DNA from: Acutalibacteraceae bacterium
GTDB taxonomy: Bacteria > Bacillota > Clostridia > Oscillospirales > Acutalibacteraceae
NCBI GenBank assembly: GCA_045544435.1
Contig: JAZPZA010000020.1
Coordinates: 16,698-80,697 of the forward strand
DNA: 64,000 bases
Reading direction: 5' to 3'
Below are positions 10,849 through 45,910 of this stretch, piece by piece; the first letter of the stretch is position 1, and every line of letters starts with the position of its first letter. The translations under genes were made by a program, and so were the position numbers. The notes below the pieces were generated by a model. That model was not told the DNA's origin. It searched no databases and worked only from the letters and a program-made list of their open reading frames with translations.

Positions 10849-11124
10849 ATAGTTTAAAAAGCGATGATGAAGAAAAGTAGCCTTATAAACGGTGTTAAGT
10901 GAGTGGCAGATAGTGCAAATGCCGCCATACGCATAGGGTGAAGAACACTTCGTAGTTGCAATCTGAAAGGCTGAAAGCTTAGTAGGTGCGTCGTGTCCGG
11001 CGCGTTAAAGCCGGTAAAGGTTTTTTAAGACCTTGAGTGACCGAACTTTCGGTAAATTAGGTGGCACCGCGGATATGCGTCTATTCGTCCTAAGTATAAG
11101 GGACTAATAGGCGCTTTTTATTTT
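10849..11124 (+). promoter_or_regulatory. T-box riboswitch leader, Asn specifier (AAC)
   Basis: Stem I start agcgatgatgaagaaaagtag. Specifier-loop context gaAACa at 10944-10946. Conserved T-box aaattaggtggcaccgcgg at 11054-11072. Terminator at 11077-11115 plus a T run. Confidence 0.85.
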
Positions 11125-14760: not shown

Positions 14761-15108
14761 GTGAGTTGGTTTCACGGTTGCGTATACTTTGTATATGAGG
14801 AAAGTCCGAGCCCCACAGGGCAGAATAGCAGCTAACGGCTGCCGAGGGTGACCTTAGGGAAAGTGCAACAGAGATATACCGCCGCTAAGGCTGTAAAGTC
14901 TTAGTTGGTAAGGGTGGAAAGGCGAGGTAAGAGCTCACCGGCTTTTTTGGAGACATTAAAGCCCTGTAAACCCTATTCGGAGCAACGCTGAGTGTGGCTA
15001 TACATTTGCCCGATGTGCCACGAAAAGCGGCTGGAGCGCGCAGGCGACTGCGCGTCGAGATAGATAACCGTGCAAGACAGAACTCGGCTTACAGACCAAC
15101 TCACGCTA
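14761..15108 (+). ncRNA. rnpB: RNase P RNA, bacterial type A
   Basis: P1 pairing of gtgagttggt (14761-14770) with accaactcac (15096-15105). CR-I gaggaaagtccgagc. ggtaagggtggaaaggcgaggtaagagctcaccgg. CR-V acagaactcggcttacag. Confidence 0.9.
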
Positions 15109-23316: not shown

Positions 23317-24136
23317 TATTCTCTACCCCCATTCTGCAAGCGTGTGCTTCCTCTTCACGATAAAAGCTGTTGCGGCGCATAAGCTCATCAAAATCAACGA
23401 GATGACCGTCAAAATCGGGGCCGTCAACACAAGCGAACTTAACCTCGCCGCCAACGCTAACCCTGCAGCCACCGCACATACCCGTTCCGTCTATCATAAC
23501 GGGGTTAAGGCTCACGATTGTTTTAATTCCCTTTTCCTTAGTGGCAAGGGACACAAACTTCATCATAGGTACGGGGCCTATTGCGATAACCAAGTCATAG
23601 GTATCGTTATCGGTAATGCGATTTAAAACATCGGTTACAAAGCCTTTTTCGCCATAAGAGCCATCATCGGTTGTGATATAAAGCTTATGGCTTACTTTTT
23701 TCATTTCCTCCTCAAGGATAACTATGTCCTTTGAACGAAAGCCTGCGATAATTGTGGTATCCACACCCATATTATAAAGCGCCTTTGCCTGCGGATATGC
23801 TATTGCGCAGCCAACGCCACCTCCTATGACTATCGCCTTTTTAGGGGAGCCGAAATGTGTGGGAACACCTAAAGGTCCCACAACATCCTGCACGCTATCC
23901 CCCGCATTTAAAGCGGTGAGACGCTTAGTGGAATAGCCTATTGCTTGCACCACTATTGTAACGGTGCCGGCCTCTCTATCAAAATCGGAAACGGTAAGCG
24001 GTATGCGCTCGCCCATTTCATCTATTCTTACTATAACAAACTGACCTGGCTCAACCTTGCGCGCGATAAACGGCGCTTCCAAGGTGATGCTGGTAACTGC
24101 ATCATTCAATTTTTTCTTTTCCAATATTTTAAACAT
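23309..24136 (-). CDS. nfnA: PyrK-like FAD/[2Fe-2S] small subunit, NfnA/SudB-type
   Basis: Start set to ATG 24136 (AGGTGA SD), 1 nt after the metK stop. MFKILEKKKLND..., C-terminal GTGMCGGCRV...FACVDGP cluster motif. It overlaps the nfnB start by 8 nt. Confidence 0.8.
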   Translation of the reverse strand: MFKILEKKKLNDAVTSITLEAPFIARKVEPGQFVIVRIDEMGERIPLTVSDFDREAGTVTIVVQAIGYSTKRLTALNAGDSVQDVVGPLGVPTHFGSPKKAIVIGGGVGCAIAYPQAKALYNMGVDTTIIAGFRSKDIVILEEEMKKVSHKLYITTDDGSYGEKGFVTDVLNRITDNDTYDLVIAIGPVPMMKFVSLATKEKGIKTIVSLNPVMIDGTGMCGGCRVSVGGEVKFACVDGPDFDGHLVDFDELMRRNSFYREEEAHACRMGVENNG

Positions 24137-24137
24137 A

Positions 24138-25325
24138 TTAATCACCTAAAACCAATTTCTTTAATTCCTCGGCTTTATCGGTTTTCTCCCAGGTAAAGTC
24201 GCTATCCTCTCTGCCCATATGACCGTAATTTGAGGTCTTGCGGTATATCGGGCGACGAAGCTCCAGCTTATCGATTATTGCAGCAGGGCGCAGGTCAAAT
24301 ACCTTTGTTACCGCATTTGCTATAATTTCATCATCCTTAACACCTGTGCCAAAGGTTTCCACCATAACAGATACGGGGCTTGCAACACCGATAGCATACG
24401 CAAGCTGTACCTCGCACTTGCGCGCGAGTCCCGCCGCTACAACATTTTTTGCAACATAGCGTGCAGCATATGCGGCGCTACGGTCAACCTTTGTGGGGTC
24501 CTTTCCTGAAAAGGCGCCGCCGCCGTGGCGAGCCATGCCGCCATAGGTATCAACGATTATCTTTCTGCCTGTAAGTCCCGTATCACCCTGAGGACCGCCG
24601 ATAACAAAGCGACCTGTGGGGTTTATGTATATCTTAGTGTTTTCATCCATAAGATTTTCAGGGATAATCGGCTTTATAACCTTTTCGAGAATGTCTTTTC
24701 TTAAAACTTCAAGGTCTACACTTGCACTGTGCTGACTGGATACAACCACCGCATCAACTCTGGTCGGTACACCGTTATTATATTCAACCGTTACCTGAGT
24801 TTTGCCGTCGGGCTGTAAGTAACTTAGCTCGCCCGATTTTCTAACGCTTGTAAGCTTATAGGACATCTTGTGCGCCAAGGAAATGCTAAGTGGCATAAGC
24901 TCAGGTGTTTCATCGCAAGCGAAGCCAAACATCATACCCTGATCTCCCGCGCCATGGAGATTATACTTATCCTCATCGCCACCTTTAAATTCGAGCGAAT
25001 TATCAACGCCCAAAGCAATATCGGGTGACTGCTTATCAAGGGCTGTTACTATTTCGCAGGTGTTGCCGTCGAAGCAGGAATCCCCGCCAGTATAACCAAT
25101 ATCCCTTAGCACACCGCGAATGATATCGGGTATATCCACCTGAGCAGTAGTGGTAATCTCACCCATAACATTAACTATACCCGTGGTGCAAAAGGTCTCG
25201 CAAGCAACGCGGGAATACTTGTCCGCTTTAAGCATTGCATCGAGTATCGCATCGGAAATCTGGTCACAAACCTTATCGGGATGCCCCTCTGTTACAGATT
25301 CGGATGTAAATAACATTTTAGACAT
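24138..25325 (-). CDS. metK: S-adenosylmethionine synthase
   Basis: [25 protein letters not shown].., ..[12 protein letters not shown].., ..[19 protein letters not shown].. Confidence 0.95.
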
Positions 25326-25349
25326 TTTAAAAATCCCCCATAAAAATTA

Positions 25350-25482
25350 AAGCCCCTTACCAAAAGATAAGCGGCTTTTAAAAACCTCATCTTTCGGATT
25401 ATCCGCAGGATTTAGCACCTTGAAAAAATCAGGTTGCCGGGTTTCATCGGGCCTGTACCCTCCGCCACTCTTGATAAGGACT
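25350..25482 (-). promoter_or_regulatory. SAM-I (S-box) riboswitch with terminator
   Basis: The minus strand reads cttatcaagagtggcggagggtacaggcccgatgaaacccggcaacc...ggtgctaaatcctgcgg...gaaagatgagg. The terminator aagccgcttatc/gtaaggggctt follows, with T's after it. Confidence 0.85.
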
Positions 25483-25503
25483 GATATTTAATTCACTTGA
25501 TTT

Positions 25504-25532
25504 ATTTTAATACTTTGCTATGTATTTGTCAA
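25504..25532 (-). promoter_or_regulatory. Promoter of the SAM-riboswitch operon
   Basis: On the minus strand: TTGACA (25527-25532), a 17-nt spacer, and TAAAAT (25504-25509). Confidence 0.6.
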
Positions 25533-25535
25533 TAT

Positions 25536-26141
25536 TTAATTTTTCCCTTTTTTACCGTTTTTAAGCAGTGGAGAGAGCCTTTTATAAACCGCAAAGCAAA
25601 TGGCGGCGTCGATAATGCCCTTTGCAAGGTTAAAGGGTAGATTAAAGATAACGAGAGCTTTTATAAGATTATCTACAGCGGGAAGCAGTGCCGAGTACAT
25701 ACCAACTATCACCTTCATCGGCATACCGTAAAACACCTCATAAAAAGGATACACCACAAAATAATTTGTTGCAATGCTCACAACAGCCATTAAAGCAGCG
25801 CCCAAAACGGCGCCCAGTAAAGCGCCCTTTCTTGAACGGTTAAAGCGGTAAACCATGCCGCTTGTTCCCACAAAAACAGCACCAAGCAGAAAATTTGAAA
25901 GCTCCCCTACACCCGCGGTGGAGGTAATAAAAAGATGCAATAGATTTTTAATAAGACACACCACAACTCCCCACACAGGACCTAAGGCATAGGCGGTTAT
26001 AAGTGCGGGTATTTCGGAAAAATCAAACTTTATAAATGACGGTATTATAAACGGCAGTGGAAACTCAAGCAGCATAAGCACAAAGCCCACCGCACCCATC
26101 ACCGCAGTGACCGAAATTTTTCTTATGTTTTCTTTTTTCAT
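25536..26141 (-). CDS. ribU: ECF-transporter S component, riboflavin type (RibU-like)
   Basis: Start set to ATG 26141 (GGAGG SD). Six-TM protein with ..LEFPLPFIIPSFIKFDFSEIPALI.. It lies directly behind an FMN riboswitch. Confidence 0.8.
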   Translation of the reverse strand: MKKENIRKISVTAVMGAVGFVLMLLEFPLPFIIPSFIKFDFSEIPALITAYALGPVWGVVVCLIKNLLHLFITSTAGVGELSNFLLGAVFVGTSGMVYRFNRSRKGALLGAVLGAALMAVVSIATNYFVVYPFYEVFYGMPMKVIVGMYSALLPAVDNLIKALVIFNLPFNLAKGIIDAAICFAVYKRLSPLLKNGKKGKN

Positions 26142-26163
26142 AATTGCCTCCAAAATCAAAAAA

Positions 26164-26320
26164 CGCCCTTGGTATCTCCAAGGGCGAAAACATTAAAAAA
26201 TCAAATTTATCCTCTTTCATCCGGACTATACCGTCGGCTTTGGAATTTCACCAAATCAACCCTTTGGGGGCTCGCAGGCTTTACTGCCGGTGGGGAATTT
26301 CACCCCGCCCTGAAGATTAT
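26164..26320 (-). promoter_or_regulatory. FMN riboswitch (RFN element) with terminator
   Basis: The minus strand reads cttcagggcggggtgaaattccccaccggcagtaaagcctgcgagc...ggtgaaattccaaagccgacggtatagtccggatgaaagagg. The terminator cgcccttgg/ccaagggcg (26164-26186) plus T's follows. Confidence 0.85.
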
Positions 26321-26345
26321 ATTTTGTTAATACTATTATACATTT

Positions 26346-26657
26346 CTATATTATTCTTGTCAAGAACAGAAAGAACAATACTTGCAATATAATTATAATA
26401 GGCAGACCTATCATAAAGCGTTTATGAAGCGTTTTATGGTGGATAATACGCATTGCAATATACATACCCAATGCGCCGCCTATAAGGCTTACTGTAAAGA
26501 GAAGCTTTTCACTGATGCGCCAGGCATTAACCCGCGCTAGATGCTTATCTAAACAACATATAAAAAAGGCGATTATATTTATAAAAGCTAAGTATACCAA
26601 TATGTATTCCAAAAATATCACCAACGATATTTTACAACAATTAAACTGCTTTTTCAA
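26346..26657 (-). CDS. DUF1294-like small membrane protein
   Basis: 103 aa. [42 protein letters not shown] fits that family. It overlaps the sigE stop by 17 nt. Confidence 0.65.
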
Positions 26658-27333
26658 TCTGTTTTTTTAATTTCCCGATTATTCGCTTTTCAAGGCGGGA
26701 TATGTAGGACTGCGATATACCTAAGGTATCTGCTACCTGCTTTTGGGTGTACTCACAGTAGCCGTTCATACCAAAGCGCATCTCCATTATCTGCCTTTCC
26801 CTTGGTGGCAGGGATGCCACAAAACCCTTTAGCTGATGGCGCTCATCCTCCTGCTCTATCCCTCGACTCACCTCATCACCATCACTGCCGAGTATATCTG
26901 AAAGCAGCAGCTCGTTGCCATCCCAGTCGGTATTAAGAGGCTCATCAATAGATATTTCGTGCCGCTTTGAGGATACCTTTCTAAGATGCATTAGTATTTC
27001 GTTTTCTATACAACGCGAGGCATAGGTAGCAAGCTTTATATTTCTATCGGGGCAGAAGGTGTTCACTGCCTTAATAAGACCTATTGTACCGATAGATATT
27101 AAGTCCTCAATACCTGTGGGGGTGCTATCGAACTTGCGCGCGATATAAACAACAAGCCTTAGATTATGAACTATAAGTTCATTTTTTGCGCTCTCGCTTT
27201 GCTCGTTTAATAGCTGTTGCTCGCGCTCGGCTGTAAGCGGCGGGGGTAGTGTTTCGGGGCCGTTTATATAATAAATCGGCTCTATAAGATTAAGCCTTAT
27301 AAGTATTTTTTGAAGAAGTTTCTTTACATTCAT
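26641..27333 (-). CDS. sigE: Sporulation sigma factor SigE (pro-sigma-E)
   Basis: Near-colinear with B. subtilis SigE: ..[88 protein letters not shown]. It directly follows spoIIGA. Confidence 0.9.
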
Positions 27334-27357
27334 ATAAACACCCCATATTTATCGGTT

Positions 27358-28176
27358 TTAAATTGACTCAGGATTAATTATCGCCTGAGCGCCTGAAAGC
27401 GGCGCGCGCGATATTGCAATTATCACATTTTTTAAAAAATGATTTCTGTTATTATATATTATCCGCGCGTGGTCTATGCGGTAGCCATCAAGAATTTCAG
27501 TGCCGCCCACTGTGGTGCAGGGTATGGCGCGGTAGCGGCAAGAAAGCTCATCTGTGCGCGCGTTAGTACCTAAAAGCCTATCGGCGGTATCTTTACTTAC
27601 AATGATTATTTCTGCAATACCAAAGGTGTCCTTTAGGGAATTGCCTGTATCAATAATTCCTGAAAGATTAATACTTCTTTCATTTATAAATAGCATTACC
27701 TCGCACTGTGCGCTTTGAGGGAATTTTTTAGCAAGCAGCCGCCGCAAAAGCGAGGTTAAAAAATAGCCTGAAACTGAAAATATTATCAGAAAAATAGGGG
27801 ATATATTGAAATACACCACCGAATTATTTATAACCATTCCGTAGGGCTTAAAAATAAACCAAAGTGCTATCATAGCCCCGCTATAAGCAAAGTTTACGCA
27901 AAAAAGAACGGCTGATGCACGAAAAAAGGCTACTAATGATTTAAAGCCGAATGTAACAACCGATAATATTGCGCACATTATAATATGGATTATTATTTCA
28001 AAAACAGGGTGCGACTGCGGTAAAAATATGTAAAGAGAAAAAGCGCCGCCTGCAACTGCCCCCAAGAGTAGCCGCCAAAGACGCGGCTTTAGTCGTAACA
28101 TCGCCGCTGTCAAGCGCAGCAGAAAATAATCAACTATTAGGTTTATAAGGAAAAGTATATCAGCATAGACTGTCAT
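27358..28176 (-). CDS. spoIIGA: Sigma-E processing peptidase SpoIIGA
   Basis: Start set to ATG 28176. Begins MTVYADILFLINLIVDYFLL. It has five or more TM segments, a GIIDTGNSL aspartyl-protease motif, and synteny with sigE. Confidence 0.85.
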   Translation of the reverse strand: MTVYADILFLINLIVDYFLLRLTAAMLRLKPRLWRLLLGAVAGGAFSLYIFLPQSHPVFEIIIHIIMCAILSVVTFGFKSLVAFFRASAVLFCVNFAYSGAMIALWFIFKPYGMVINNSVVYFNISPIFLIIFSVSGYFLTSLLRRLLAKKFPQSAQCEVMLFINERSINLSGIIDTGNSLKDTFGIAEIIIVSKDTADRLLGTNARTDELSCRYRAIPCTTVGGTEILDGYRIDHARIIYNNRNHFLKNVIIAISRAPLSGAQAIINPESI

Positions 28177-28244
28177 CACCGTCACCGAATATAATTATAC
28201 TGCACAAATGGTAAAAATAATGTCGCAAAAAAGAGGCGATAAAA

Positions 28245-28427
28245 AATTAGCAATTTTCAATTAGCAATCGGCAATTAATGAGTTTCGCAAGACGGAACGA
28301 AATTTAAATAACGGACGGTCAATGACCGCCCCTACGATGTGGTTATATATCTCCTGCGTAGGGGCGAGCACTGCTCGCCCGTTTTATTCCGTGACGCACA
28401 AGCAGCAGATCGAAATTATTCATTTTT
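28245..28427. repeat. Composite intergenic repeat A (heptad array + inverted REP-like palindromes + shared 17-mer)
   Basis: Heptads AATTAGC/AATTTTC/AATTAGC/AATCGGC/AATTAAT at 28245-28279. acggacggtcaatgaccgcccctacg (28311-28336) is mirrored by cgtaggggcgagcactgctcgcccgt (28357-28382). cgaaattattcattttt (28411-28427) is identical to 31550-31566. Confidence 0.7.
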
Positions 28428-28443
28428 GATTTTTGATAAAAAG

Positions 28444-28471
28444 AAAAAGCGGTGTGCATAATGCACACCGC
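28444..28471 (-). terminator. Terminator ending the 601-aa-protein / 33-aa-ORF transcript
   Basis: gcggtgtg-cataatg-cacaccgc, followed on the minus strand by TTTTT. It lies 15 nt below the double stop of the small ORF. Confidence 0.7.
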
Positions 28472-28485
28472 TTTGGGGCTTGTTA

Positions 28486-28587
28486 TTAAAGTCCTTCGGT
28501 TTCTTCGTCCTCTAATGTGGGAAGACTTGTAACGATTACATCGTCTAAATCTAAGTTATAAATATCGATTTCTGCTTTTTTAAACAT
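28486..28587 (-). CDS. 33-aa highly acidic peptide of unknown function
   Basis: Below the ORF-track cut-off. GGAGGAG SD (28596-28602), 8-nt spacer, ATG at 28587. Translation is MFKKAEIDIYNLDLDDVIVTSLPTLEDEETEGL, ending in TAATAA. It sits between the 601-aa gene stop and the terminator. Confidence 0.5.
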   Translation of the reverse strand: MFKKAEIDIYNLDLDDVIVTSLPTLEDEETEGL

Positions 28588-28619
28588 TTCAATTTCTCCT
28601 CCTATTTAGTGATGTATCA

Positions 28620-30425
28620 TTACTGCTCTACTGGGAAGCGTTTTAGAAGCATATCGTTATAGTAAACCAAAGCCTTGGCAACATTTGAAAGCTTTGTGTA
28701 CTTCGCTATATTGTTTTCGGTTGTTGCCTCATCAAGCTTCGCTTGCGCCTTAATTGCATAGCCTTCAACGCTATAAGTGCCTACGAACATTTCGGTACCA
28801 TCATATGTTATAGTAACTGTTATCGGTGTTCTCATTTGTCTTGAGCCGATATCAAGTGTGTAAGCGTGATACCTACCTGATTTTTCATCATACTGCATTT
28901 GAGTTGCATTTACGGTGGCAAGAGTTTCTTCACCATTTTTAAAGGTTACTTCCACTTTCTCATTCTGCTTATATTCACCATTGAAAGCGAATTGGAATTT
29001 AAGGGAAGCATTGGTGCGAAGAATTAAAGAGGTTGTGTGCACCTTGCAGTCTGCTAACTCGGCAATATTTTCTGGTTCCGTATTCGTTTGGGAAAGTGTA
29101 ACAGCATTATAGGCATTCTTTAATTCTTCTGCAAGCTCTGCATTTGCCGTAGCAGTTTCACCTGCATAGGTTTGTGCAGCTGCGCCGTAATCAAGCAAGG
29201 AAGCAAAGAGCGCTTTATCGGCAGCGGTAGGAGTGCTTCCATCACTATAAACAGCTGTGCCATTAACTACTTCATAGCAGTAATCAGCAATGCTATAAGC
29301 CTTTGTGGGACCGCAACTAAAGGAGGTTCCATTATCTGCCAAAACTGTAAACAATAAGTCATCGCCTATATGCCTTGCTGGAGCTCCTGTGAAGGTGAAT
29401 TTTATATATCCACCTTCCTCCTCACCTTCTATTACCGAAATATTCTCTCTGCTTTGAGCGCCTTCAACTTCGCTGTTTCCGCCGAATTGATGATACTTAT
29501 AACCATCACTCGGGCAAACTATCAATTTGAAATTGTAACCATCGCGCTTATTGGTTAGAATGTTAATATCAAGTGTGTCTGTAGATTCGTTATAATAAGT
29601 ATTAATACCACGAACGGCATATCTTGACTCCATAGTTCTAGTTGCATCATCAGGCCTTACCTGTTTAATTGGTGTAGAACAAAGTCTACATGTTGTATCA
29701 TAAAATTCATAGTATTCTTCTTTATTTACAGCACCAATTGAACGACTATAAGTGTGAACATGGATATAATCTTCAAATGCAGACTCTGTAGAAGTTGTAA
29801 CACTATCTGAGTTTGTAACATTAAAATAGGTTTTACTATTTTCACCCGACATATTAATATCGTCAATCTTTACAACATATCTATTCCAAGTACCCAAGCC
29901 GCTAACGCCAGTACCATTGTCCGGACCATCTATTTGCTCAAACTTAAGTCTCAAGGTGAGTGAGTTATAAAATCTACGAGTGTCATCCTGCACATTGTTG
30001 TCCTTCGCGCCATCGCCGACAGCAAGAACAGCATAAGGATCATCAGGGAACTCTTCGGTGGGGCCTGAAACCCCTATTTCAGGCACAAAAGCGACGCCGC
30101 CATCGGACATTTCAGCACTAACAAATTCAGCACCAACCAAAGCTATAGGATCAGCAGTGGATGCAGAGCACGAACCATTAGTAGCAACTGCTAAAACTTC
30201 ACTTGAATCAACTATGAAATCAACTGCAGAAAATGGTTCATTTTGAGCTGCGGTAAAGGTTACCAGAGCATAAGCCTCAGTATCGCCCTGAAGCTCAACC
30301 GAGCATTTGATATCATATGTTGCTTCGACGGTTTCCGCACTTACGGTGCCCCCGAGGAACATTGATGTAATTATTGCCATCATAAGTATGGCTGCGACAG
30401 CTCTGCTTAAGAATTTCTTAGACAT
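28620..30425 (-). CDS. Secreted 601-aa protein of unknown function
   Basis: Sec-type signal peptide MSKKFLSRAVAAILMMAIITSMFLGGTVSA/ET. No LPXTG, SLH or TM anchor and no recognised catalytic motif. Confidence 0.75.
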   Translation of the reverse strand: MSKKFLSRAVAAILMMAIITSMFLGGTVSAETVEATYDIKCSVELQGDTEAYALVTFTAAQNEPFSAVDFIVDSSEVLAVATNGSCSASTADPIALVGAEFVSAEMSDGGVAFVPEIGVSGPTEEFPDDPYAVLAVGDGAKDNNVQDDTRRFYNSLTLRLKFEQIDGPDNGTGVSGLGTWNRYVVKIDDINMSGENSKTYFNVTNSDSVTTSTESAFEDYIHVHTYSRSIGAVNKEEYYEFYDTTCRLCSTPIKQVRPDDATRTMESRYAVRGINTYYNESTDTLDINILTNKRDGYNFKLIVCPSDGYKYHQFGGNSEVEGAQSRENISVIEGEEEGGYIKFTFTGAPARHIGDDLLFTVLADNGTSFSCGPTKAYSIADYCYEVVNGTAVYSDGSTPTAADKALFASLLDYGAAAQTYAGETATANAELAEELKNAYNAVTLSQTNTEPENIAELADCKVHTTSLILRTNASLKFQFAFNGEYKQNEKVEVTFKNGEETLATVNATQMQYDEKSGRYHAYTLDIGSRQMRTPITVTITYDGTEMFVGTYSVEGYAIKAQAKLDEATTENNIAKYTKLSNVAKALVYYNDMLLKRFPVEQ

Positions 30426-30529
30426 GTCGATTTTCTCCTAACCGGCAATAAGCCAAATAAATTATGTGCCCTAAGGGCATCGAAAAAATAGGTACGCAAA
30501 CAAGACCGTACTTCTACGGCTACTGTAAC

Positions 30530-30558
30530 ATTATAGCACCGTCAATTGCAAATTGCAA
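30530..30558 (-). promoter_or_regulatory. Promoter of the 601-aa-protein operon
   Basis: On the minus strand: TTGCAA (30553-30558), a 17-nt spacer, and TATAAT (30530-35). The -35 lies inside the AATTGCA heptad pair. Confidence 0.6.
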
Positions 30559-30632
30559 GCAGAAAAATGATATTATTTAATAAAAATTATAAAAAATTTT
30601 AATCAATTTTGAAAATGTATACAAAAAGCGCA

Positions 30633-30661
30633 TTGACAATTGTTTTTTATTATCGTATCAT
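30633..30661 (+). promoter_or_regulatory. Promoter of the pqqD-like/S26 peptidase pair
   Basis: TTGACA at 30633-30638, a 17-nt spacer, and TATCAT at 30656-30661. Confidence 0.55.
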
Positions 30662-30682
30662 TCTAATAAAGGCGGTGTTTTT

Positions 30683-30949
30683 TTGAAGCTCAAGTATGAT
30701 TTTGTGGTAAATAATGTTGCGGGTGACACGGTGGCTGTATCGGTTGGTGATACGGGCGGCCGCTTCAACGGCTATATAAAGCTTAATGAAACGGGCGCAT
30801 TTATATTTGATATGCTAAAAAGTGATGTTACGCGCGATGAAATAATCGACGCTGTTTTAAAAAAATATAGTGATGCCACGCTATCTGACGCCGAAGAGAC
30901 GGTTGATGAATTCATCGCAAAGCTTGAAAAGGCGGAGCTTTTAATATGA
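30683..30949 (+). CDS. PqqD-family (RRE-like) small protein
   Basis: TTG start. The sequence ..GYIKLNETGAFIFDMLKSDVTRDEIIDAVLKKYSDATLSDAEETVDEFIAKLEKAELLI follows the PqqD/PF05402 pattern. Confidence 0.75.
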   Translation: MKLKYDFVVNNVAGDTVAVSVGDTGGRFNGYIKLNETGAFIFDMLKSDVTRDEIIDAVLKKYSDATLSDAEETVDEFIAKLEKAELLI

Positions 30950-31410
30950 ATGATGCGGTAAATCTTAATTCTGTGGAGGAAAAGCTTAAAACTCAACCAC
31001 AGGTATCCTGCCTTACCTCGGGGGCGAGTATGAAACCTCTTTTTAAAACGCATCGGGATATTGCGGTGATAAACAGAGTGGTAAATCCGCTTAAGGTAAA
31101 CGATGTTGTGCTTTATAGGTACAGAGAGGGCGACAAGCTTATACTTCACAGGATAATTAAAATTCTGCCTGACGGCACATATATAATAAGGGGCGACAGC
31201 ACATATACAAATGAATATGTGAAACGCAATATGATAATTGGCGTGCTTGACAGCCTTTACCGCAGGGGTAAATATATAAACTGCCAAGCCTCAAAGGGTT
31301 ATCGCGCTTACGTTATATATATAAGGCTAAGCTATCCTGTAAGATTTATATTGCGCAGGGTGCGCAGTATGCTTGGACGGATAAAAAGGAAATTAGTAAT
31401 TAACAATTAG
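30946..31410 (+). CDS. S26-family peptidase, SipW/ER-type (Ser-His), without TM anchor
   Basis: ATGA overlap with the pqqD-like gene. Motifs SGASMKPLF (Ser box), GDKLILHRII (His box as in SipW ..THRIV..) and IRGDSTYTNE. No hydrophobic anchor, only a basic amphipathic C-terminus. Confidence 0.7.
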   Translation: MNDAVNLNSVEEKLKTQPQVSCLTSGASMKPLFKTHRDIAVINRVVNPLKVNDVVLYRYREGDKLILHRIIKILPDGTYIIRGDSTYTNEYVKRNMIIGVLDSLYRRGKYINCQASKGYRAYVIYIRLSYPVRFILRRVRSMLGRIKRKLVINN

Positions 31411-31699
31411 CAATTAGCAATTATTGCGAAAGACAAGGTACGGTTCCCTGTCTTTCGTGTTGCGTAATAGTTTTACTATCTTCCCACCGCAAGCGGTCCC
31501 CCCTCCTTTAGGCAAGGAGGGCCTTTTATATTCTTGCCGTAAGGCACACCGAAATTATTCATTTTTCATTATTCATCATTCATTATTCATTAATTTTTGG
31601 CGGACAGTCGAGGACGCCTGTCCCTACGGTACATATATAAAAACCACATTATAAGGAAAGCTTCCTTGCAATGTGGTTTTTAATTGCTAATTGCTAATT
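31405..31699. repeat. Composite intergenic repeat B, 295 bp with perfect 19-bp terminal inverted repeats
   Basis: aattagcaattagcaatta at 31405-31423 is the exact reverse complement of 31681-31699. Internal hairpins lie at 31427-31457, 31501-31521 and 31599-31629. An ATTATTC heptad array spans 31550-31597. A bidirectional terminator lies at 31640-31681. Confidence 0.75.
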
Positions 31700-34295
31700 A
31701 TTTTAAAAGGTCGGTATCGATTTTAAATCCGCCTTCGAGGCTTGTCTCTTGCGAATTATCATCGGGTAGTATATCGTCATCGAGAATGCTTTTGCGCTCG
31801 GATATCACCGACTTATAAATTGCGGCTGTTTCGGCAATATCATCCTTTTGCCATTGCTCGATAAGCATGTCGCCCTCGGGGTATTCGGTATCGGTGGGAT
31901 GCTTTTTTATATAAAGCGAAGCGGCTGCAAAGTATATAAGGAACACGGCTACTGATATTACAGTAATTATCACACCCGCTGTGAGCCCCGGTGTTTTATA
32001 ATCAAAGCGAATAGCGCTAACCCCTGCCTCAACAGGAACCGCCATAAATCCGACATTAACCTTTTCTATCTCCACCGCCTCGCCGTTTACTGTGGCGGAC
32101 CAACCTTTATCATAGGGAATAGAGAAAAACACTAAGGATTTGCTATCGCGGGTAACGGTGGCGGTAAAGCCGCCGTTATCGGTGCTGAAATTATCTGCCG
32201 CAGTGGCGCGAAGAGCAGCGCAATCCTCAGCCATAGCATCATCCGATAAACTAAGCGTGGTACCAAGCGTGTCGGAATAATTGCCTGCGGAATTGAGTGT
32301 TTCAATATCTGTCATATAGCCGGCATATTTTTCTATCTGCTCATCTGAAAGCAATATAGCCTTAAGCATAAGGCGGGAACGGCTTTCCACATTATAGCTG
32401 CCGCAAAAGTCATGGCTCATATAATAATCGTATGAAAAACCGTAGGGTATATAATTCTTATTTTCATAAACATAATATCCGCCACTGGTTTTTACATATT
32501 CGTAATCGGGCATAAGTGTTTCGCCATCCTCGACAAAGCTATCACCGCCGTTACGATTAAGCAGATACCTCACCGAAAGCAGAGGTCTTATAGCGGGGAT
32601 ATCGGTGTCGGGGCGACTGGCAACAGAACGGTCAACACCTATATACTCATAAAAATCAACAATGGACGCAGGCACTACAGAATGAAACGCATTAATTGTG
32701 GGAAGCCCCAGATACATACCCGTGTTATCAACACCGTCATAAACATCAACACGGAAATCCTCACTTTCACCCTCGAGCACCACCTCGCCCTCGATAAGCT
32801 GGTCTATCATAACTTCCTTTATTTCATAAGAATGCGTTCTGCCAAGTGCCACAAACACATTAGCGTATATAACCGATATTACACATACATAGGCTATAGC
32901 GCTTTTATAAAATGCGGTTCTATCGTCTTTCAGTATTTTAAGCAGCATTTTTAAAATAAACAGCGAAATTATTGCTATTAGGCAGGTCACAAAGAAGCGC
33001 ACCATATAGGTGCCGTCCTCACTTGGCGTGTAAAGACCAAAGACAAGCTCACCTTCACTGTTTTTCTGCGGGAAAAAGCCAATTACGGCGGTAAAGGCAA
33101 GTGTGATACCGCTAACCCAGCTAAAGCCTGAGGACCAGTCTACCGAGTTGTCCTCGGTGAGCATAACGGTGGCAAGACACATCATAAGAATGGGCATATA
33201 AAACCAACGCGCATAGTATGACGAATTGAAAGCATAAAAGGCGCTGTTTAAAATAGGCACCATTGCCATAAAGGCGCATATTGCGATAATTCGTTTAAGC
33301 CAACTACCCTTTTTATGAATAAACCAAGTGAAAACGCCCACCATACTAAACACAGGCAGCCAGCCCCCCAAGGAGGACCATTTCACATTGGCGTGTGGGA
33401 AAAAGACAGGGCGTGCAGGAAGGTCGGGCGGGAAAAAGAAGCACTGGATAACATTTAGGTATATCTGCTCCTTGCCATAGGTGATACCGTTCCAGCCGAG
33501 GAGTATATTAGAAACGCGGGAATTATCGGTTATAGCAGAAAGTGCGGGAACGAGCAGAGCCGCCGCCATCAAAAGGCCTATTACCGCTTCAAACGCAAGC
33601 ACTGCAAAGCGGGAAATCTTAACCTTTATAGCGCCCGAAAGCAGACGGACAAAGAAGTAAATTATGCTGAATACCACCATACCGAAAAAGAAAAAGTAAT
33701 TCGTAATCGCGCTAAGGGTAACACAAAGCGCGAACACGCCGCGGCGGTTTTCGGTTATGAGCAGCTCAAGGCTCAAAAGCAGAAGCGGAAAAACGATTAT
33801 AGCCTCGTGAAAGTGGTTAAAGAAAATATTATAGATAGAAAAGCCCGAAAATGCATACAAAAGACCGCCAAGGCTTGCCGCCTGCGCAGTTTTAGTGAAA
33901 CGGCGGATATACATATATGCTGTTAGCGCGGCGCAGCCGAATTTTAATATAAACAGCGGGCCCATAAGATAAGGCACAAAGGAATTAGGAAAAATAAGTG
34001 TTATCCAGAAAAACGGACTGCCAAGCAGATAAAATGCATAAGAGCCCACAAAATTAGAGCCAAGGTCGGTAGTAAAGCTCCAGTTAACATTACCTTCGCG
34101 GATTGCCTGATGGCACATCTGATAAAATGGGATTTGCTGAACATTGAAATCACCGAAAAAGGTGAAATATCCCTCACTTAAAATCATATAGGGCACAAAA
34201 AAGCAAGCGGCAACCGCCATAGCTATTAAAAATGTAAAAAGCCTCTTTTCCTTTTGGGGGCGAAGCGAGGTAAGCTTATTATATGAAAAGGTCAT
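31698..34295 (-). CDS. YfhO-family membrane protein (putative glycosyl-transfer to cell-envelope polymer)
   Basis: 865 aa and polytopic. The N-terminal region ..FFVPYMILSEGYFTFFGDFNVQQIPFY..GSPFFW.. is typical of YfhO. Confidence 0.8.
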   Translation of the reverse strand: MTFSYNKLTSLRPQKEKRLFTFLIAMAVAACFFVPYMILSEGYFTFFGDFNVQQIPFYQMCHQAIREGNVNWSFTTDLGSNFVGSYAFYLLGSPFFWITLIFPNSFVPYLMGPLFILKFGCAALTAYMYIRRFTKTAQAASLGGLLYAFSGFSIYNIFFNHFHEAIIVFPLLLLSLELLITENRRGVFALCVTLSAITNYFFFFGMVVFSIIYFFVRLLSGAIKVKISRFAVLAFEAVIGLLMAAALLVPALSAITDNSRVSNILLGWNGITYGKEQIYLNVIQCFFFPPDLPARPVFFPHANVKWSSLGGWLPVFSMVGVFTWFIHKKGSWLKRIIAICAFMAMVPILNSAFYAFNSSYYARWFYMPILMMCLATVMLTEDNSVDWSSGFSWVSGITLAFTAVIGFFPQKNSEGELVFGLYTPSEDGTYMVRFFVTCLIAIISLFILKMLLKILKDDRTAFYKSAIAYVCVISVIYANVFVALGRTHSYEIKEVMIDQLIEGEVVLEGESEDFRVDVYDGVDNTGMYLGLPTINAFHSVVPASIVDFYEYIGVDRSVASRPDTDIPAIRPLLSVRYLLNRNGGDSFVEDGETLMPDYEYVKTSGGYYVYENKNYIPYGFSYDYYMSHDFCGSYNVESRSRLMLKAILLSDEQIEKYAGYMTDIETLNSAGNYSDTLGTTLSLSDDAMAEDCAALRATAADNFSTDNGGFTATVTRDSKSLVFFSIPYDKGWSATVNGEAVEIEKVNVGFMAVPVEAGVSAIRFDYKTPGLTAGVIITVISVAVFLIYFAAASLYIKKHPTDTEYPEGDMLIEQWQKDDIAETAAIYKSVISERKSILDDDILPDDNSQETSLEGGFKIDTDLLK

Positions 34296-34367
34296 TCTAT
34301 CCCCTACCTTAATAAAAATTATATATTGATATTATAACAAGTTTTGGTATAATATTCAATAAAGGAA

Positions 34368-34949
34368 GTGATAATTTTGGCAAGCCATTTTTATGCGATG
34401 CTATCCAGAATGAAAAATATATACCGTTGGGGTCTTATGCGAAACACAAGGCAGGAAAACTTAAGCGAGCACAGCCTTGAGGTCGCCTTTATAGCCCACG
34501 CGCTTGCAATAATCAAAAACAAGCGTTTTGGCGGCAAGGTTGATGCAAATGCAGTTGCGGTTGCCGCAATGTTTCACGATACAAGCGAGATAATAACAGG
34601 TGATATGCCAACACCTATTAAATACTATAACGCGAACATTAAAAGTGTTTATAAGGAAATAGAGGATATTGCCGAAGAAAAACTTATAAATATGCTGCCT
34701 ACCGATATAAGAGAGGATTTCTCCCCTATTTATAATGTAGATGAACAGTCCGCACGCATCATAAAAGCGGCAGATAAAATTTCAGCGCTTATCAAATGCA
34801 TCGAGGAAAGAAATTCGGGAAACCGCGAGTTTTCCTCTGCTGAAAAATCAACCCTTGAAGCAATAAAGGCATTAAATCTACCCGAAGCCGATGCTTTTCT
34901 TGAAGAATTTATTGAAAGCTTTACACTCACTCTTGATGAATTGCAATAA
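34368..34949 (+). CDS. HD-domain 5'-deoxynucleotidase, YfbR-like
   Basis: SHFYAMLSRMKNIYRWGLMRNTRQENLSEHSLEVAFIAHALA parallels E. coli YfbR. HD motif at MFHDTSE. The true start may be TTG at 34377. Confidence 0.8.
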   Translation: MIILASHFYAMLSRMKNIYRWGLMRNTRQENLSEHSLEVAFIAHALAIIKNKRFGGKVDANAVAVAAMFHDTSEIITGDMPTPIKYYNANIKSVYKEIEDIAEEKLINMLPTDIREDFSPIYNVDEQSARIIKAADKISALIKCIEERNSGNREFSSAEKSTLEAIKALNLPEADAFLEEFIESFTLTLDELQ

Positions 34950-34986
34950 AAAAATTGACTGCTGAACTTCAGCAGTCAATTTTTTA

Positions 34987-36207
34987 TTATCTTATGCCGT
35001 ATTTCTCAATCACATAGTCCATATCCTTATCGCCTCTGCCTGAAAGGTTGATAAGAATTGAGCCGTGGTCCATAGTTTTTGCAAGCTTCATACCGTATGC
35101 TACAGCATGTGAGCTTTCAATTGCAGGGATTATACCCTCAAGGCGGGAAAGCTTATAGAAAGCATCTATAGTTTCTTCATCATCTATAACATCATATTTT
35201 ACTCTGCCGATGCCCTGCAAAAATGCGTGCTCAGGACCTGAGGAGGGGTAATCAAGACCGCTTGCTACCGAGTAAACGGGCGCGGGCTCACCGTTTTCAT
35301 CCTTAAGCATAATGCTGTTAAAGCCGTGCATTATACCCTCGGTGCCGTATTTAAGGCTTGCCGCGTGGTCGCCAAGCTTTGGTCCGCGACCAAGAGGCTC
35401 GATACCATATATATCGACGGGGTCATTAAGGAAGCCTGCAAAAAGTCCCGCAGCATTTGAGCCGCCGCCCACACAGGCAACAATAGATGTGGGGAGATGT
35501 CCTGTCATATCGATAAACTGCTCACGCGCTTCAATTCCAACAACGCTCTGGAAATCGCGCACCATCATTGGGAATGGGTGGGGACCTAATACCGAACCTA
35601 TGCAGTAAATGGAATCCTTATATTCCTTGCTATACGCATCAAAAGCCGCGTCAACTGCCTCTTTAAGCGTGGCAAGACCGTGGGTAACCTCAACAACATT
35701 GGCGCCGAGTATCTTCATTCGCGCCACATTGGGAGCCTGCTTCTTTATATCAACAGAGCCCATATAAATATCGCATTCAAGACCGAAATATGCGGCGGCA
35801 GTAGCAAGCGCTACACCGTGTTGACCGGCCCCCGTTTCGGCGATAACCTTTTTCTTACCCATATATTTTGCCAAAAGCGCTTCGCCCATACAATGGTTAA
35901 GCTTATGCGCACCCGAATGATTAAGATCCTCACGCTTAGCATATAATTGCACCTTGCCGCCAAGAGCATCGGAAAGTCTTTCAAGATGGGTAACAGGGGT
36001 GGGTCTGCCCTGAAATTCCTTTCTTATTCTGCGAAGCTCTGCAATAAACTTTCTGGACTGACAAATTGAATAATACGCCTCTGTGATTTCAGCCATAGCC
36101 GCTTTAAGGTTATCCTCTATGTAGCAGCCGCCGTATTTACCAAAAAAGCCTTCCTTATCGGGATAATTATTAAAATAGGTATCAAAATCAACGCCATTGA
36201 ATTTCAT
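34987..36207 (-). CDS. trpB: Tryptophan synthase beta chain (stand-alone)
   Basis: ..FGKYGGCYI.., ..[14 protein letters not shown].. (PLP Lys), ..[13 protein letters not shown].., ..[10 protein letters not shown].. Confidence 0.9.
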
Positions 36208-36294
36208 TTCTATTTCCTCCGTAAATTTATATTAAGTTGATTAATTCAAATTTCAGCAGGCTTGCGCCATCGTTTAGTTAGTATAATCATAAAA

Positions 36295-36572
36295 ACAAAA
36301 AATCCTATCCCTGAAAATACAGGGACAAGACTTTAAAACTCAAATCCTGCGGTACCACCCTTGTTGATGAAATATCATCCGCCTCACACTTATACCAACA
36401 TATAAGCCGCACTATAACGGGTGCACCCCGTCGACTGCTACTAAAGCTCACGCTCGTTCGGTCGCCCTCATAAGTCCATTCACCAAAACATTCGCTACGG
36501 CATTCCCACCATCAGCCGCTCTCTAAAAGCTTCAAATTAAGGTTACTATTCTTAATCATCGGTTTAACTGTT
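36295..36572 (-). promoter_or_regulatory. T-box riboswitch leader, Trp specifier (UGG)
   Basis: The minus strand has agagagcggctgatggtgggaatgcc (stem I) and specifier context gaaUGGa (plus-strand cca at 36476-36478). The T-box caagggtggtaccgcagg lies at about 36345-36362. The terminator gtccctgtattttcagggat plus T run lies at 36295-36326. Confidence 0.85.
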
Positions 36573-44105: not shown

Positions 44106-45026
44106 TTATTTTAGAAATCCGTTTACTATCTCTTCCTCTGCCTGCTTTTCGGTAAGGCCCAAGGTCATAAGCTTTATAAGCTGCTCGCCCGCAATTTTGC
44201 CGATAGCTGCCTCATGGATGAGCGACGCATCGATATGATTTGCATTGATTTCTGGTATAGCGCTTACCTTTGCATCTCCCATAATAATGGCATCGCATTC
44301 GGTGTGCCCTGTGCAAAGGTTATTGCCGTTTATATTAGATTTATAAATCTGTGTTGAGCTATCGCAGGCTACCGAACGAGAAACCACATTAGCGCTCGAA
44401 TTTTCGCCGTTTAGGTCAACTGTGAAATCTGTGTCGGCATGCTGGGTGCCGTGAGTCATAAGCTTTTCGCGGATAATAAGGGTGCCGCCATCGGCGACCA
44501 CCGCCTTGGTTACGCGGGCTGTGTTGTCAATACCCTTAATCTGGCTGGTTTCCATTTCCATATAACCGCCCTCGGCTATATTGATAACGGTTACGGGATT
44601 CATATTTCTGCCGCCTGTGCCGTCACCCGCGCCATAGTGGCGCTCAATATACTTAACACGCGCATTTTTACCCACAAAAAAGGTGTGGATACCGTCGTGA
44701 CGAGACTCTTCATCTCCGCAGTTATGAATGCCGCAGCCGGCCATAATGGTAACATCGGCATCATCGCCGATTATAAAATCATTGTAAACTAAGTCGTTAA
44801 GTCCGCTCGCATCAATTATAACAGGGATGTGCACCGTCTCACCCTTGGTGTTCGGTCGGATAATTATATCTATACCAGGCTTGTCCTCTTTATTACGGAT
44901 ATCAACATTCTCGGTAACATGTCTTTCAGCCAAGGCACCGTTTGCACGGATATTATAGGCTCCCTCGGGAGTGCCATCCATATCAGCAATTATTTTAAGC
45001 AGTTGCTTTTCGGTATCGTTCATCAC
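44106..45026 (-). CDS. SufB/SufD-family Fe-S scaffold protein, short form
   Basis: 306-aa beta-helix-type sequence ending ..HEAAIGKIAGEQLIKLMTLGLTEKQAEEEIVNGFL, which is the typical Suf B/D C-terminus. It overlaps the sufC-like gene by 4 nt. Confidence 0.75.
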   Translation of the reverse strand: MMNDTEKQLLKIIADMDGTPEGAYNIRANGALAERHVTENVDIRNKEDKPGIDIIIRPNTKGETVHIPVIIDASGLNDLVYNDFIIGDDADVTIMAGCGIHNCGDEESRHDGIHTFFVGKNARVKYIERHYGAGDGTGGRNMNPVTVINIAEGGYMEMETSQIKGIDNTARVTKAVVADGGTLIIREKLMTHGTQHADTDFTVDLNGENSSANVVSRSVACDSSTQIYKSNINGNNLCTGHTECDAIIMGDAKVSAIPEINANHIDASLIHEAAIGKIAGEQLIKLMTLGLTEKQAEEEIVNGFLK

Positions 45027-45760
45027 TGCGCCCCCTTCATTTTATCGGTAAGCACAGGGCAAACCGAGCTTGAAGCCTCAAGCAATTCGGGAAGTATATC
45101 ACCCTTAGCACCGTATGCCGAAAGATTGCCCGCTGTTAGCACTGCCACCTTATCGGCAATATTAAGAATGCGCTCTTGGTGGGATATTATAATTATCGAG
45201 CCGCCCAATGTGCTGTGCATTTTTTCGAAAACATTTATAAGGTTGTTAAAGCTCCAAAGGTCGATGCCTGCCTCAGGCTCATCAAAGAGCGATACCTTTG
45301 TGCCACGCGCTAAAACGGTTGCTATCTCAATTCTTTTTAATTCGCCGCCCGAAAGGGATGCATTTACCTCACGGTTTATATAGTCGCGCGCGCAAAGTCC
45401 CACCTGAGAAAGATAATCGCAGGCTTCTGATATGCTTATTTCCTTGCCCGAAGCTAAGCGGATAAGGTCGTGCACGGTGATTCCTTTAAAGCGCACAGGT
45501 TGCTGAAAAGCAAAGCTGATACCCTTTTTTGCGCGCTCGGTAATAGAAAGCTCGGTTATATCCTCACCATCAAGCAGGATTTGACCTGAGGTTGGCTTTA
45601 TTATTCCCGCAATAACCTTTGCAAGGGTTGACTTACCGCCGCCGTTAGGGCCTGTGATAGCGATAAAGCCATTATCTATGGTCATTGATATATTCTTTAA
45701 AATTTGCTTTTCACCGTTTTCGCTTTCAGCAGAAAAGCAAATGTTTTTAAGTTCTAACAT
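45023..45760 (-). CDS. sufC: SufC-like ABC ATPase
   Basis: Start set to ATG 45760 (GGAGG SD). Walker A GPNGGGKST, signature LSGGELKR and Walker B SLFDEPEAGID. Confidence 0.8.
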   Translation of the reverse strand: MLELKNICFSAESENGEKQILKNISMTIDNGFIAITGPNGGGKSTLAKVIAGIIKPTSGQILLDGEDITELSITERAKKGISFAFQQPVRFKGITVHDLIRLASGKEISISEACDYLSQVGLCARDYINREVNASLSGGELKRIEIATVLARGTKVSLFDEPEAGIDLWSFNNLINVFEKMHSTLGGSIIIISHQERILNIADKVAVLTAGNLSAYGAKGDILPELLEASSSVCPVLTDKMKGAQ

Positions 45761-45910
45761 CAAAGTCCTCCAAAATATTTTATACATTGTATAATTATAT
45801 TCATTATACCTTTTTTACAGACAAAAAGCAACAATAAAAGCTTAAATATTATTATTTACTTAATATAAGTATTTATGGTATAATTTCCATATATTTTTTA
45901 AAAAGTGAGA

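Follow-up and report, generated by a model that had tools for sequence, protein, structure and literature searches.

A kinase-less, LPP-like pairing of recognition element and leader peptidase beside a candidate precursor peptide in Clostridia

Organization of the locus

The subject of this report is a compact group of four genes within a 64-kb stretch of DNA from an Acutalibacteraceae bacterium (contig JAZPZA010000020.1), referred to here as the window, along the whole of which all coordinates are counted. The group encodes a PqqD-like protein, of the family of recognition elements (RREs) for peptides that are ribosomally synthesized and then post-translationally modified (RiPPs), a peptidase of the S26 type, a large secreted protein of 601 amino acids (aa), termed p601, and an acidic peptide of 33 residues, termed p33. 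Together they recall the leader-processing part of the pathway for linear polyphosphorylated peptides (LPPs), after whose components (LppA, LppB, and so on) several entries in Table 1 are named.

The genes are arranged as two divergent transcription units. On one strand p601 lies upstream of p33, from which it is separated by 32 nucleotides (nt), and p33 has its own AGGAGG ribosome-binding site. On the other, the stop of the PqqD gene overlaps the start of the peptidase gene by 4 nt (ATGA). The PqqD open reading frame (ORF) starts with TTG in the window, and its homologues start as MKLKY with ATG. An earlier note on this DNA had already placed the four ORFs, the divergent promoters, and the terminator of p33, and all were found at those positions when the ORFs and the promoter and terminator signals were checked.

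The 257-nt divergent intergenic region (30426-30682 in the window) is 93% identical among three genomes, the other two being represented by the related loci L001 (3800-4055) and L088 (7747-8000), and both promoters are kept in all three. This identity, which extends over the 5' leader of p601 of around 105 nt, is found although the p601 proteins of the three genomes are only 42-48% identical. RNAalifold predicts 32 pairs in the leader, one of them compensatory, including a 3' hairpin that covers the p601 ribosome-binding site, a prediction that is weak as it draws on 3 sequences only. These putative hairpins suggest a conserved form of regulation.

Table 1. Coordinates of the features of the four-gene unit and its immediate surroundings
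Feature	Position	Strand	Basis
Intrinsic terminator ending the p601-p33 transcript	28446..28474	-	13-bp stem, 7 GC pairs, then T-run
p33, candidate LppA-like precursor peptide	28486..28587	-	AGGAGG ribosome-binding site; peptide-family hidden Markov model (HMM) E 3.7e-12
p33 putative leader, residues 1-21	28525-28587	-	MFKKAEIDIYNLDLDDVIVTS
p33 putative acidic core, residues 22-33	28489-28524	-	LPTLEDEETEGL
p601, Sec-secreted, fast-evolving protein, co-transcribed upstream of p33	28620..30425	-	Signal peptide read from translation
5' untranslated leader of p601-p33 mRNA, conserved, predicted hairpins	30426..30529	-	3-genome alignment, RNAalifold
Sigma-70-type promoter of p601-p33	30530..30558	-	TTGCAA-17-TATAAT, TG extension, 10/12 matches; kept in L001 and L088
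Sigma-70-type promoter of PqqD-S26 operon	30633..30661	+	TTGACA-17-TATCAT, 11/12 matches; invariant in three genomes
Discrete RRE (PqqD family), LppB-like, 88 aa	30683..30949	+	PF05402 E 5e-15
Soluble archaeal-type (S26B, SipW/Sec11-like) serine peptidase, LppS-like, 154 aa	30946..31410	+	Profiles, homologues, AlphaFold2 (AF2)
Terminator-like hairpin 3' of peptidase gene	31501..31521	+	8-bp stem, 5 GC pairs, T-rich tail
YfhO-family GT-C glycosyltransferase, convergent with peptidase gene	31698..34295	-	PF09586 E 1.5e-83

The recognition protein and the peptidase

The assignment of the smaller protein of the operon to the PqqD family, proposed in the earlier note, is borne out by its Pfam match (Table 1). 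NCBIfam models of lasso-type PqqD proteins also match it, at E values of 1e-7 to 2e-8 that are under their cut-offs, and the protein carries a net charge of -7.

The peptidase belongs to no family in a Pfam search, and in NCBIfam its matches to TIGR02228, the archaeal-type signal peptidase I (E 3e-10), and, weakly, to SipW (E 2.6e-5) are both under the cut-off. Among 21 homologues the invariant positions are Gly26, Ser28 (in GxSMxP), Pro31, His68 and Arg69 (in LHRI), and Gly83-Asp84 (the GD motif), and an acidic residue six positions past the GD motif (E90) occurs in all 21, as Glu in 20 and as Asp in one. In a profile search of the PDB, human SEC11A ranks first, with the Ser, His, and GDN boxes in alignment. 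The AF2 model, which has a pLDDT of 88.8 and an N-terminal helix at residues 7-16, is matched best in Foldseek by SipA, SpsB, and SEC11A/C, and then by LexA/UmuD. From these alignments and structural matches, the protein has the features of the S26B group, namely the S26 fold, a serine within GxSMxP, and a histidine within xHRx as the general base. The membrane anchor and extracytoplasmic active site with which such enzymes act on Sec signal peptides are missing, as no transmembrane segment is found in the peptidase (the highest Kyte-Doolittle mean over 19 residues is 0.96) and the NCBIfam scores stay below the SipW and archaeal signal peptidase cut-offs. The alignment, the fold matches, and the hydropathy scan thus agree with the earlier description of an anchorless S26 peptidase with Ser and His boxes of the SipW/ER type, and the catalytic residues, the possible lack of which had been raised there, are intact, Ser28 and His68 being invariant and position 90 acidic in the 21 homologues.

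The C-terminus of the peptidase consists of one long basic helix of 37 residues (117-153; 31294-31404), with a net charge of +11 and a conserved YP motif. This helix may serve in attachment to the membrane surface, or in binding of the acidic precursor or of the RRE. Its counterpart in LppS is more hydrophobic, and LppS has been reported to be poorly soluble.

The family is large, with 301 representative clusters found by profile search at E <= 1e-30 and 3,741 at E <= 1e-10. Natural fusions join the S26-like domain to PqqD, ABC exporter, NTP_transf_5, and methyltransferase domains (P0065, P0079, P0169, P0113, P0160, P0109), and in P0113 it is found at the N-terminus of a fused ABC exporter. 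Separately, three S26-type proteins of around 370-400 aa (P0090, P0117, and P0156) carry an extra N-terminal domain that was matched to no family.

Homology to the LPP pathway

The LPP RiPP clusters of Bacillota have been described by Popov et al. (Nat Commun 2026; PMC13381572), who studied the lppA-K-B-S-D-N cluster of Paenibacillus alginolyticus. The precursor, encoded by lppA, has the leader consensus YxxPxVLxHQxIxFETxxS and a variable C-terminus; the HprK-like kinase is encoded by lppK and a discrete RRE by lppB, and lppS codes for a SipW homologue of the archaeal signal peptidase type, lppD for an MsbA-like exporter, and lppN for a nucleoside triphosphate (NTP) transferase (PMC13381572). 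LppS cuts LppA after T-1, and only with LppB present, and the substitutions S29A, H68A, and D93A in LppS abolish cleavage, while LppK polyphosphorylates Ser3 of the LppA core (PMC13381572). An AlphaFold3 model of LppS, with mutational support, has its N-terminal alpha1 helix in contact with the RRE-leader sheet (PMC13381572). The biological role of these peptides was left without an answer (PMC13381572).

When compared by hhalign with LppS (WP_029196374.1, from Supplementary Data 1 of the same paper), the family of the window peptidase aligns with a probability of 98% and an E value of 1.8e-13. Ser28 and His68 correspond to S29 and H68 of LppS, and E90 lies as many residues past the GD motif as D93 does, but is Glu rather than Asp, and the gaps in the hhalign alignment put D93 one column off. 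The locus therefore encodes an LppS homologue, a leader peptidase like signal peptidase I (SpI), with Ser and His invariant and Glu in the place of Asp. A Ruminococcus homologue (SCH01704.1), which falls in sequence similarity network cluster 9 of the Popov et al. dataset, aligns with the window peptidase at E 9e-13. The pairwise match of the PqqD-like protein to LppB is weak (E 6e-5 over 30 residues); as in LPP clusters, a discrete RRE lies beside the peptidase, here identified by its PF05402 match and by the 4-nt overlap of the two genes.

The earlier note had supposed that an RRE presents a leader to a soluble peptidase of the SipW type, and this idea finds support in the homology to LppB and LppS, for which RRE-dependent cleavage was demonstrated (PMC13381572). 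The accompanying remark that no characterized example was known has been outdated since May 2026, when LppB/LppS were characterized (PMC13381572).

The p33 peptide and its family

Small ORFs near the PqqD-peptidase cassette were clustered, and an HMM was built from the peptide family so found, to which p33 belongs (Table 1). The HMM finds members in 11 loci as well as the window, all within 6 kb of a peptidase gene, and manual inspection adds more. NCBIfam holds no family for ten of the precursor peptides, p33 included, and Pfam none for p33. In a logo of 25 members, the leader reads [F/Y]xKPELEI[VI]xFxx[ED]D[IV]I[ATV]TS and closes with an invariant Ser (25/25), past which the information content, 4.3 bits before, is only about 1 bit; the cores are hypervariable and, for the most part, acidic. 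Within p33, the segment FKKAEIDI aligns with the family motif [F/Y]xxPELEI. Set against the precursors of LPP clusters, which span 35-200 aa, p33 has 33 residues, with a conserved leader and a variable core; its family consensus shares [F/Y]xxPE[LV], but p33 itself carries FKKA, and at the junction DVIVTS rather than FETxxS.

The association also holds in reverse. When database contigs were retrieved through the peptides, six of six with enough flanking sequence carried the cassette (L081, L082, L083, L086, L087, and L090), with genes for a ScmC-like protein, PqqD, and a protein of around 155 aa with no Pfam family beside the peptide, and usually an ABC exporter and NTP_transf_5 as well. Closer to the window, the p33 leader of L001 is identical at 20 of 21 residues, the one change being N11D, and its core has diverged; the leader of L089 shows the same single change, and its core starts differently. 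Since p33 is kept in three genomes together with its ribosome-binding site and its leader, while p601 is only 42-48% identical, the peptide signals more than a chance ORF. The acidic 33-mer is the likely substrate of the peptidase, in keeping with one of two candidates that the earlier note had put forward, as it falls into a leader/core precursor family that co-localizes with the PqqD-S26 cassette.

Some members of the peptide family are found in cassettes that contain one or two radical S-adenosylmethionine (SAM)/SPASM maturases (L023, L050, L054, L061, L064, L086, and L087). Their precursors have the same leader followed by Cys-rich cores, as in ...DIIFAS/GESCAETSNLGDGC, and their sequences suggest that these cassettes may be hybrids in which LPP-type processing is combined with modification of the thioether type. 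The supplementary files of Popov et al. (PMC13381572), in so far as these were accessible, do not mention radical SAM.

Gene neighborhoods in related genomes

A scan of species-representative genomes gave 80 related loci, mostly from metagenome-assembled genomes (MAGs) of rumen and gut Clostridia. In 70 of them the peptidase gene has a PqqD homologue no more than 10 kb away, in most cases immediately upstream and usually with a 4-nt overlap. The most frequent further partners are a P-loop HprK-like kinase of around 245 aa (46 loci), a fused ABC exporter (25), a PF14907 nucleotidyltransferase (NTP_transf_5; 22), and YfhO (16). The P-loop protein has weak matches to an HprK-related kinase and to ScmC, and is annotated in the collection as PF27840 ScmC. 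Other neighbors are heterogeneous, the commonest of 144 genes being radical SAM/SPASM (8), LCP (6), and Wzz (4). The order kinase-PqqD-S26-ABC-NTP_transf_5 in L076 and L081 equals lppKBSDN. At the other extreme, a count of domain combinations finds no kinase in about 30 of the 80 loci (PqqD alone in 13, PqqD plus YfhO in 15, and neither in two), and the kinase-less pairs therefore form a stable subgroup.

The pair of p601 and p33 recurs among the 80 loci only in L001, the closest relative, where the PqqD protein and the peptidase are 88.6% and 77.3% identical to those of the window and the frames are intact. The complete unit of secreted protein, p33, PqqD, and S26 peptidase is kept in three genomes: the window, L001, and L088/L089. 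In the last of these, PqqD-S26 is divergent from p610-p33, with the same 32-nt spacer and ribosome-binding site, and the unit lies beside engB/lon and without YfhO. That it is kept in different flanks indicates a portable unit that is maintained as such. The earlier note had proposed that its idea would be refuted if the pair traveled with other genes, such as those of polysaccharide loci, and never with p601 and p33. The outcome is mixed, in that the pair is mostly found with the HprK-like kinase, ABC exporter, NTP_transf_5, or YfhO, and with capsule genes too, and p601 recurs in the three closest genomes only. A general role as a pure accessory of polysaccharide loci was considered and rejected, LCP and Wzz genes being few among the neighbors.

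The association with YfhO provides a different way to understand the pair, in which the RRE and peptidase would serve the YfhO-type GT-C glycosyltransferase, or unlinked precursors, and the adjacency of p601-p33 would be a local rearrangement without functional meaning. Besides the 16 loci with an adjacent YfhO gene, this is favored by the gene arrangement in a sister clade, in which YfhO is the first gene of a translationally coupled YfhO>PqqD>S26 operon and its stop overlaps the PqqD ATG by 11 nt in 9 of 12 loci examined (L002, L005-L009, L011, L012, and L017), and by an in-frame YfhO-PqqD ORF of 955 aa in L010 (7125-9992), which is either a real fusion or an assembly error. LPP clusters are also located in capsular polysaccharide loci (PMC13381572), and an HMM search found no p33-like peptide within 10 kb in the 12 closest YfhO-linked relatives. 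However, all of the YfhO-linked loci belong to one clade and one chromosomal site, by trpB, so that shared descent can explain the linkage; L088 combines PqqD-S26 with p610-p33 and has no YfhO; and unrelated Clostridia have the p33 leader family next to the cassette. In the window, yfhO is context only, being convergent with the pair and not co-transcribed with it. A primary link to YfhO consequently appears improbable here, if not negligibly so.

The secreted protein p601

The p601 protein carries a canonical Sec signal peptide with a VSA/E cleavage site and belongs to no family in Pfam or NCBIfam searches. BLASTP against 5.8 billion proteins finds only two homologues, 48% and 40% identical, and the identity to the L001 counterpart is 41.6%. 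An AF2 model built from 3 sequences reached a pLDDT of only 49.5, and was therefore not used for a fold search.

The earlier note had named p601 as the second possible substrate, and one could accordingly view the peptidase as a dedicated SipW-like signal peptidase for the 601-aa protein, in the manner of SipW and TasA/TapA. The divergent promoters, which are apparently co-regulated, the presence of p601 with the pair in three genomes, and the weak SipW match in NCBIfam all lend themselves to this view. The nature of both proteins speaks against it: the signal peptide of p601 is an ordinary one, cleavable by a housekeeping signal peptidase, whereas the peptidase has neither a transmembrane anchor nor a signal peptide, its homologues include fusions with cytoplasmic PqqD domains and with the N-terminal end of an ABC exporter, and the homologous LppS acts on a cytoplasmic leader peptide (PMC13381572). 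The absence of p601 from 77 of the 80 loci adds to this. For these reasons p601 is unlikely to be the substrate, a suggestion that has thus not been borne out, and the dedicated signal peptidase is the least probable of the alternatives by some distance.

A pattern across loci may point to another relationship. Outside the radical-SAM-type clusters, the precursors nearly always adjoin a Sec-secreted protein or lipoprotein, fast-evolving and of unrelated families. Such a protein, of 420-925 aa, lies 13-135 nt from the precursor in the window (28486-30425) and in L001, L023, L025, L031, L051, L076, L081, L082, L084, L090, and L092, and the modules of peptide and protein are often duplicated. A single family for these large proteins was rejected, as they fall into at least three unrelated groups, the p601-like proteins, a group with a Flg_new-containing C-terminal domain, and CBM26/Big_2 lipoproteins. 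For p601 the role is probably that of a functional partner to the mature peptide, and not of a substrate. A more specific and decidedly speculative proposal is that a short acidic peptide, left unmodified, is matured by an RRE/SpI pair independent of any kinase, and that this peptide acts with the co-transcribed, rapidly diversifying secreted protein, the two forming, for instance, a cognate extracellular pair of ligand and protein or a conflict/recognition pair. Were this true, the way in which LPP-like precursors are paired one-to-one, across Clostridia, with Sec-secreted proteins and lipoproteins of unrelated families would be a pointer to the role of LPP-type peptides, and the operons coupled to YfhO would suggest that glycosylation takes place at the cell surface.

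Proposed pathway

The interpretation that we favor, with a probability of roughly 0.6, is that the unit, as a relative of LPP-type RiPP clusters, has a reduced gene set in which the PqqD-like RRE and the S26 peptidase trim p33. From the genes, their homologies, the conserved catalytic residues, the leader/core architecture, and the co-occurrence across loci, we infer the following course of binding, cleavage, cut position, and peptide fate. Translation of p33 would yield a precursor in which 21 leader residues precede an acidic core of 12. The leader would be bound by the PqqD-like RRE via the FKKAEIDI segment and, by analogy with LppB/LppS, its junction with the core (...DDVIVTS / LPT...) presented to the cytoplasmic S26B-type peptidase. 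Cleavage, mediated by Ser28, His68, and Glu90, would fall at the invariant Ser21 or up to three residues to its N-terminal side, with a short acidic peptide as the product. That Ser could be the P1 or the P1' residue, or the counterpart of the phospho-acceptor that lies three residues into the core of LppA. An assignment as P1 by the -3/-1 rule was not retained after the LppA data, in which the cut follows T-1 and the phospho-Ser is at core position 3. As the kinase, exporter, and NTP transferase are not encoded nearby, the peptide would be released unmodified, or these functions would be supplied from elsewhere in the genome. The fast-diverging p601, co-transcribed with p33, would probably work together with the peptide once matured.

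A number of observations weigh against this scheme. Within the 64-kb window there is no HprK-like kinase corresponding to LppK, as judged with a jackhmmer profile from the 46 kinases of related loci, no PF14907-type NTP transferase corresponding to LppN, and no full-length ABC exporter corresponding to LppD, the sole ABC match being a 254-aa ORF (45023-45787) that lies around 14 kb off and is too short. The peptidase is only 24% identical to LppS. In p33, F and A stand in the place of the Y and P of the characterized RRE-binding motif, and the Tyr hydroxyl is a key contact in the LppB system (PMC13381572). The lack of a p33-like peptide near the YfhO-linked relatives counts here as well. Finally, unphosphorylated LppA is processed poorly in cells (PMC13381572), so that a kinase-less unit might likewise cleave inefficiently.

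Several of these points would also fit the decay of a full LPP-like cluster, of which a remnant is left that has lost its kinase, exporter, and NTP transferase and makes a product no longer. Apart from the three missing genes, the promotion of cleavage by phosphorylation in the characterized system and the frequent gain and loss of LPP clusters (PMC13381572) are compatible with decay. Yet the catalytic residues are all intact; the frames of both operon genes are open at the high identities to L001 given above; the promoters, the ribosome-binding site, and the p33 leader are nearly invariant in three genomes; and the roughly 30 loci without a kinase argue for a stable kinase-less subfamily. Decay thus seems a little less probable even than the link to YfhO.

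The homologies indicate that the PqqD-S26 pair probably works like the LppB/LppS step, and with the class-defining kinase, the exporter, and the NTP transferase absent from the window the locus is not a canonical LPP cluster. It is a kinase-less, exporter-less clostridial version of LPP-type processing, linked to a secreted protein; the mechanism is known and the version is new.

Comparison with known systems

The likeness to LPP clusters lies in the discrete PqqD-type RRE beside a homologue of archaeal-type signal peptidase I that has about 150 aa and no anchor, in the corresponding Ser, His, and acidic catalytic positions, in the conserved N-terminal leader ([Y/F]xxP.[VL]...) with its hypervariable C-terminus, and in related clostridial loci that keep the full order of kinase, RRE, peptidase, exporter, and NTP transferase. 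The differences are as follows. Without LppK, the window lacks the polyphosphorylation that defines the class, and it also lacks LppD and LppN. The leader ends in ...D[IV]IxTS rather than ...FET|xxS, p33 has FxxA in the place of YxxP, and the core is 12 residues long compared with 45 in LppA. The precursor is co-transcribed with a secreted protein, and the host is an Oscillospirales-type Clostridium, whose nearest relatives are Ruminococcus and Acutalibacteraceae MAGs, rather than a member of the Bacillus class.

In split-B lasso systems of the paeninodin type, with a B1 RRE and a B2 cysteine peptidase, a [Y/W]xxP leader is also bound by a stand-alone PqqD-like RRE, which passes it to a leader peptidase that is a separate protein, and relatives have an HprK-like kinase and a PF14907 nucleotidyltransferase as accessory enzymes. 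The peptidase there is a transglutaminase-like cysteine protease, whereas here it is a serine enzyme of the S26B group. Neither the lasso cyclase (the Asn-synthetase-like C protein) nor a transglutaminase-like B2 protein is found among the ORFs at 24000-36000 of the window or among the 25 commonest Pfam families of the 144 neighboring genes, and with no such cyclase among those families the product is expected to stay linear.

With SipW of Bacillus subtilis, Sec11, and archaeal signal peptidase I (S26B), the peptidase shares its fold and the Ser-His(-acid) arrangement. It differs from them in having no membrane anchor, in its presumably cytoplasmic location, to which the fusions point, in its dependence, by homology with LppS, on an RRE partner, and in a likely substrate that is a RiPP-type leader and not a Sec signal peptide. 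A further parallel is provided by the C39 peptidase-containing ABC transporters, as in some homologues (P0113) an ABC exporter has the S26-like domain as its N-terminal part, a fusion that suggests a coupling of cleavage to export. The C39 enzymes belong to a different protease clan, however, and the window has no exporter of this kind.

The wider importance of the module lies in its spread across gut and rumen Clostridia, in its ability to exist without the class-defining kinase, and in its recombination with radical SAM maturases, YfhO glycosyltransferases, and ABC exporters. The repeated pairing of precursors with fast-evolving secreted proteins offers a testable lead to function, and the three-gene core found here represents a simple system for RRE-guided removal of a leader by a serine peptidase.

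Other features of the window

Directly downstream of the p33 terminator, on the minus strand at 26641-28185, two ORFs of 275 and 230 aa resemble a spoIIGA-sigE pair, as judged from their translations. The same pair flanks the unit in L001. As the flank in L088 is engB/lon instead, this adjacency looks incidental.

A number of RNA elements are also present. Within 24138-26321 (minus strand) are a SAM riboswitch upstream of metK (25384-25480) and a flavin mononucleotide (FMN) riboswitch upstream of a gene for a 207-aa membrane protein (26205-26321). A T-box lies upstream of a trpB-like gene (36318-36568, in the region 34987-36568, minus strand), and the plus strand holds a second T-box (10855-11095) and the RNase P RNA (14762-15107).

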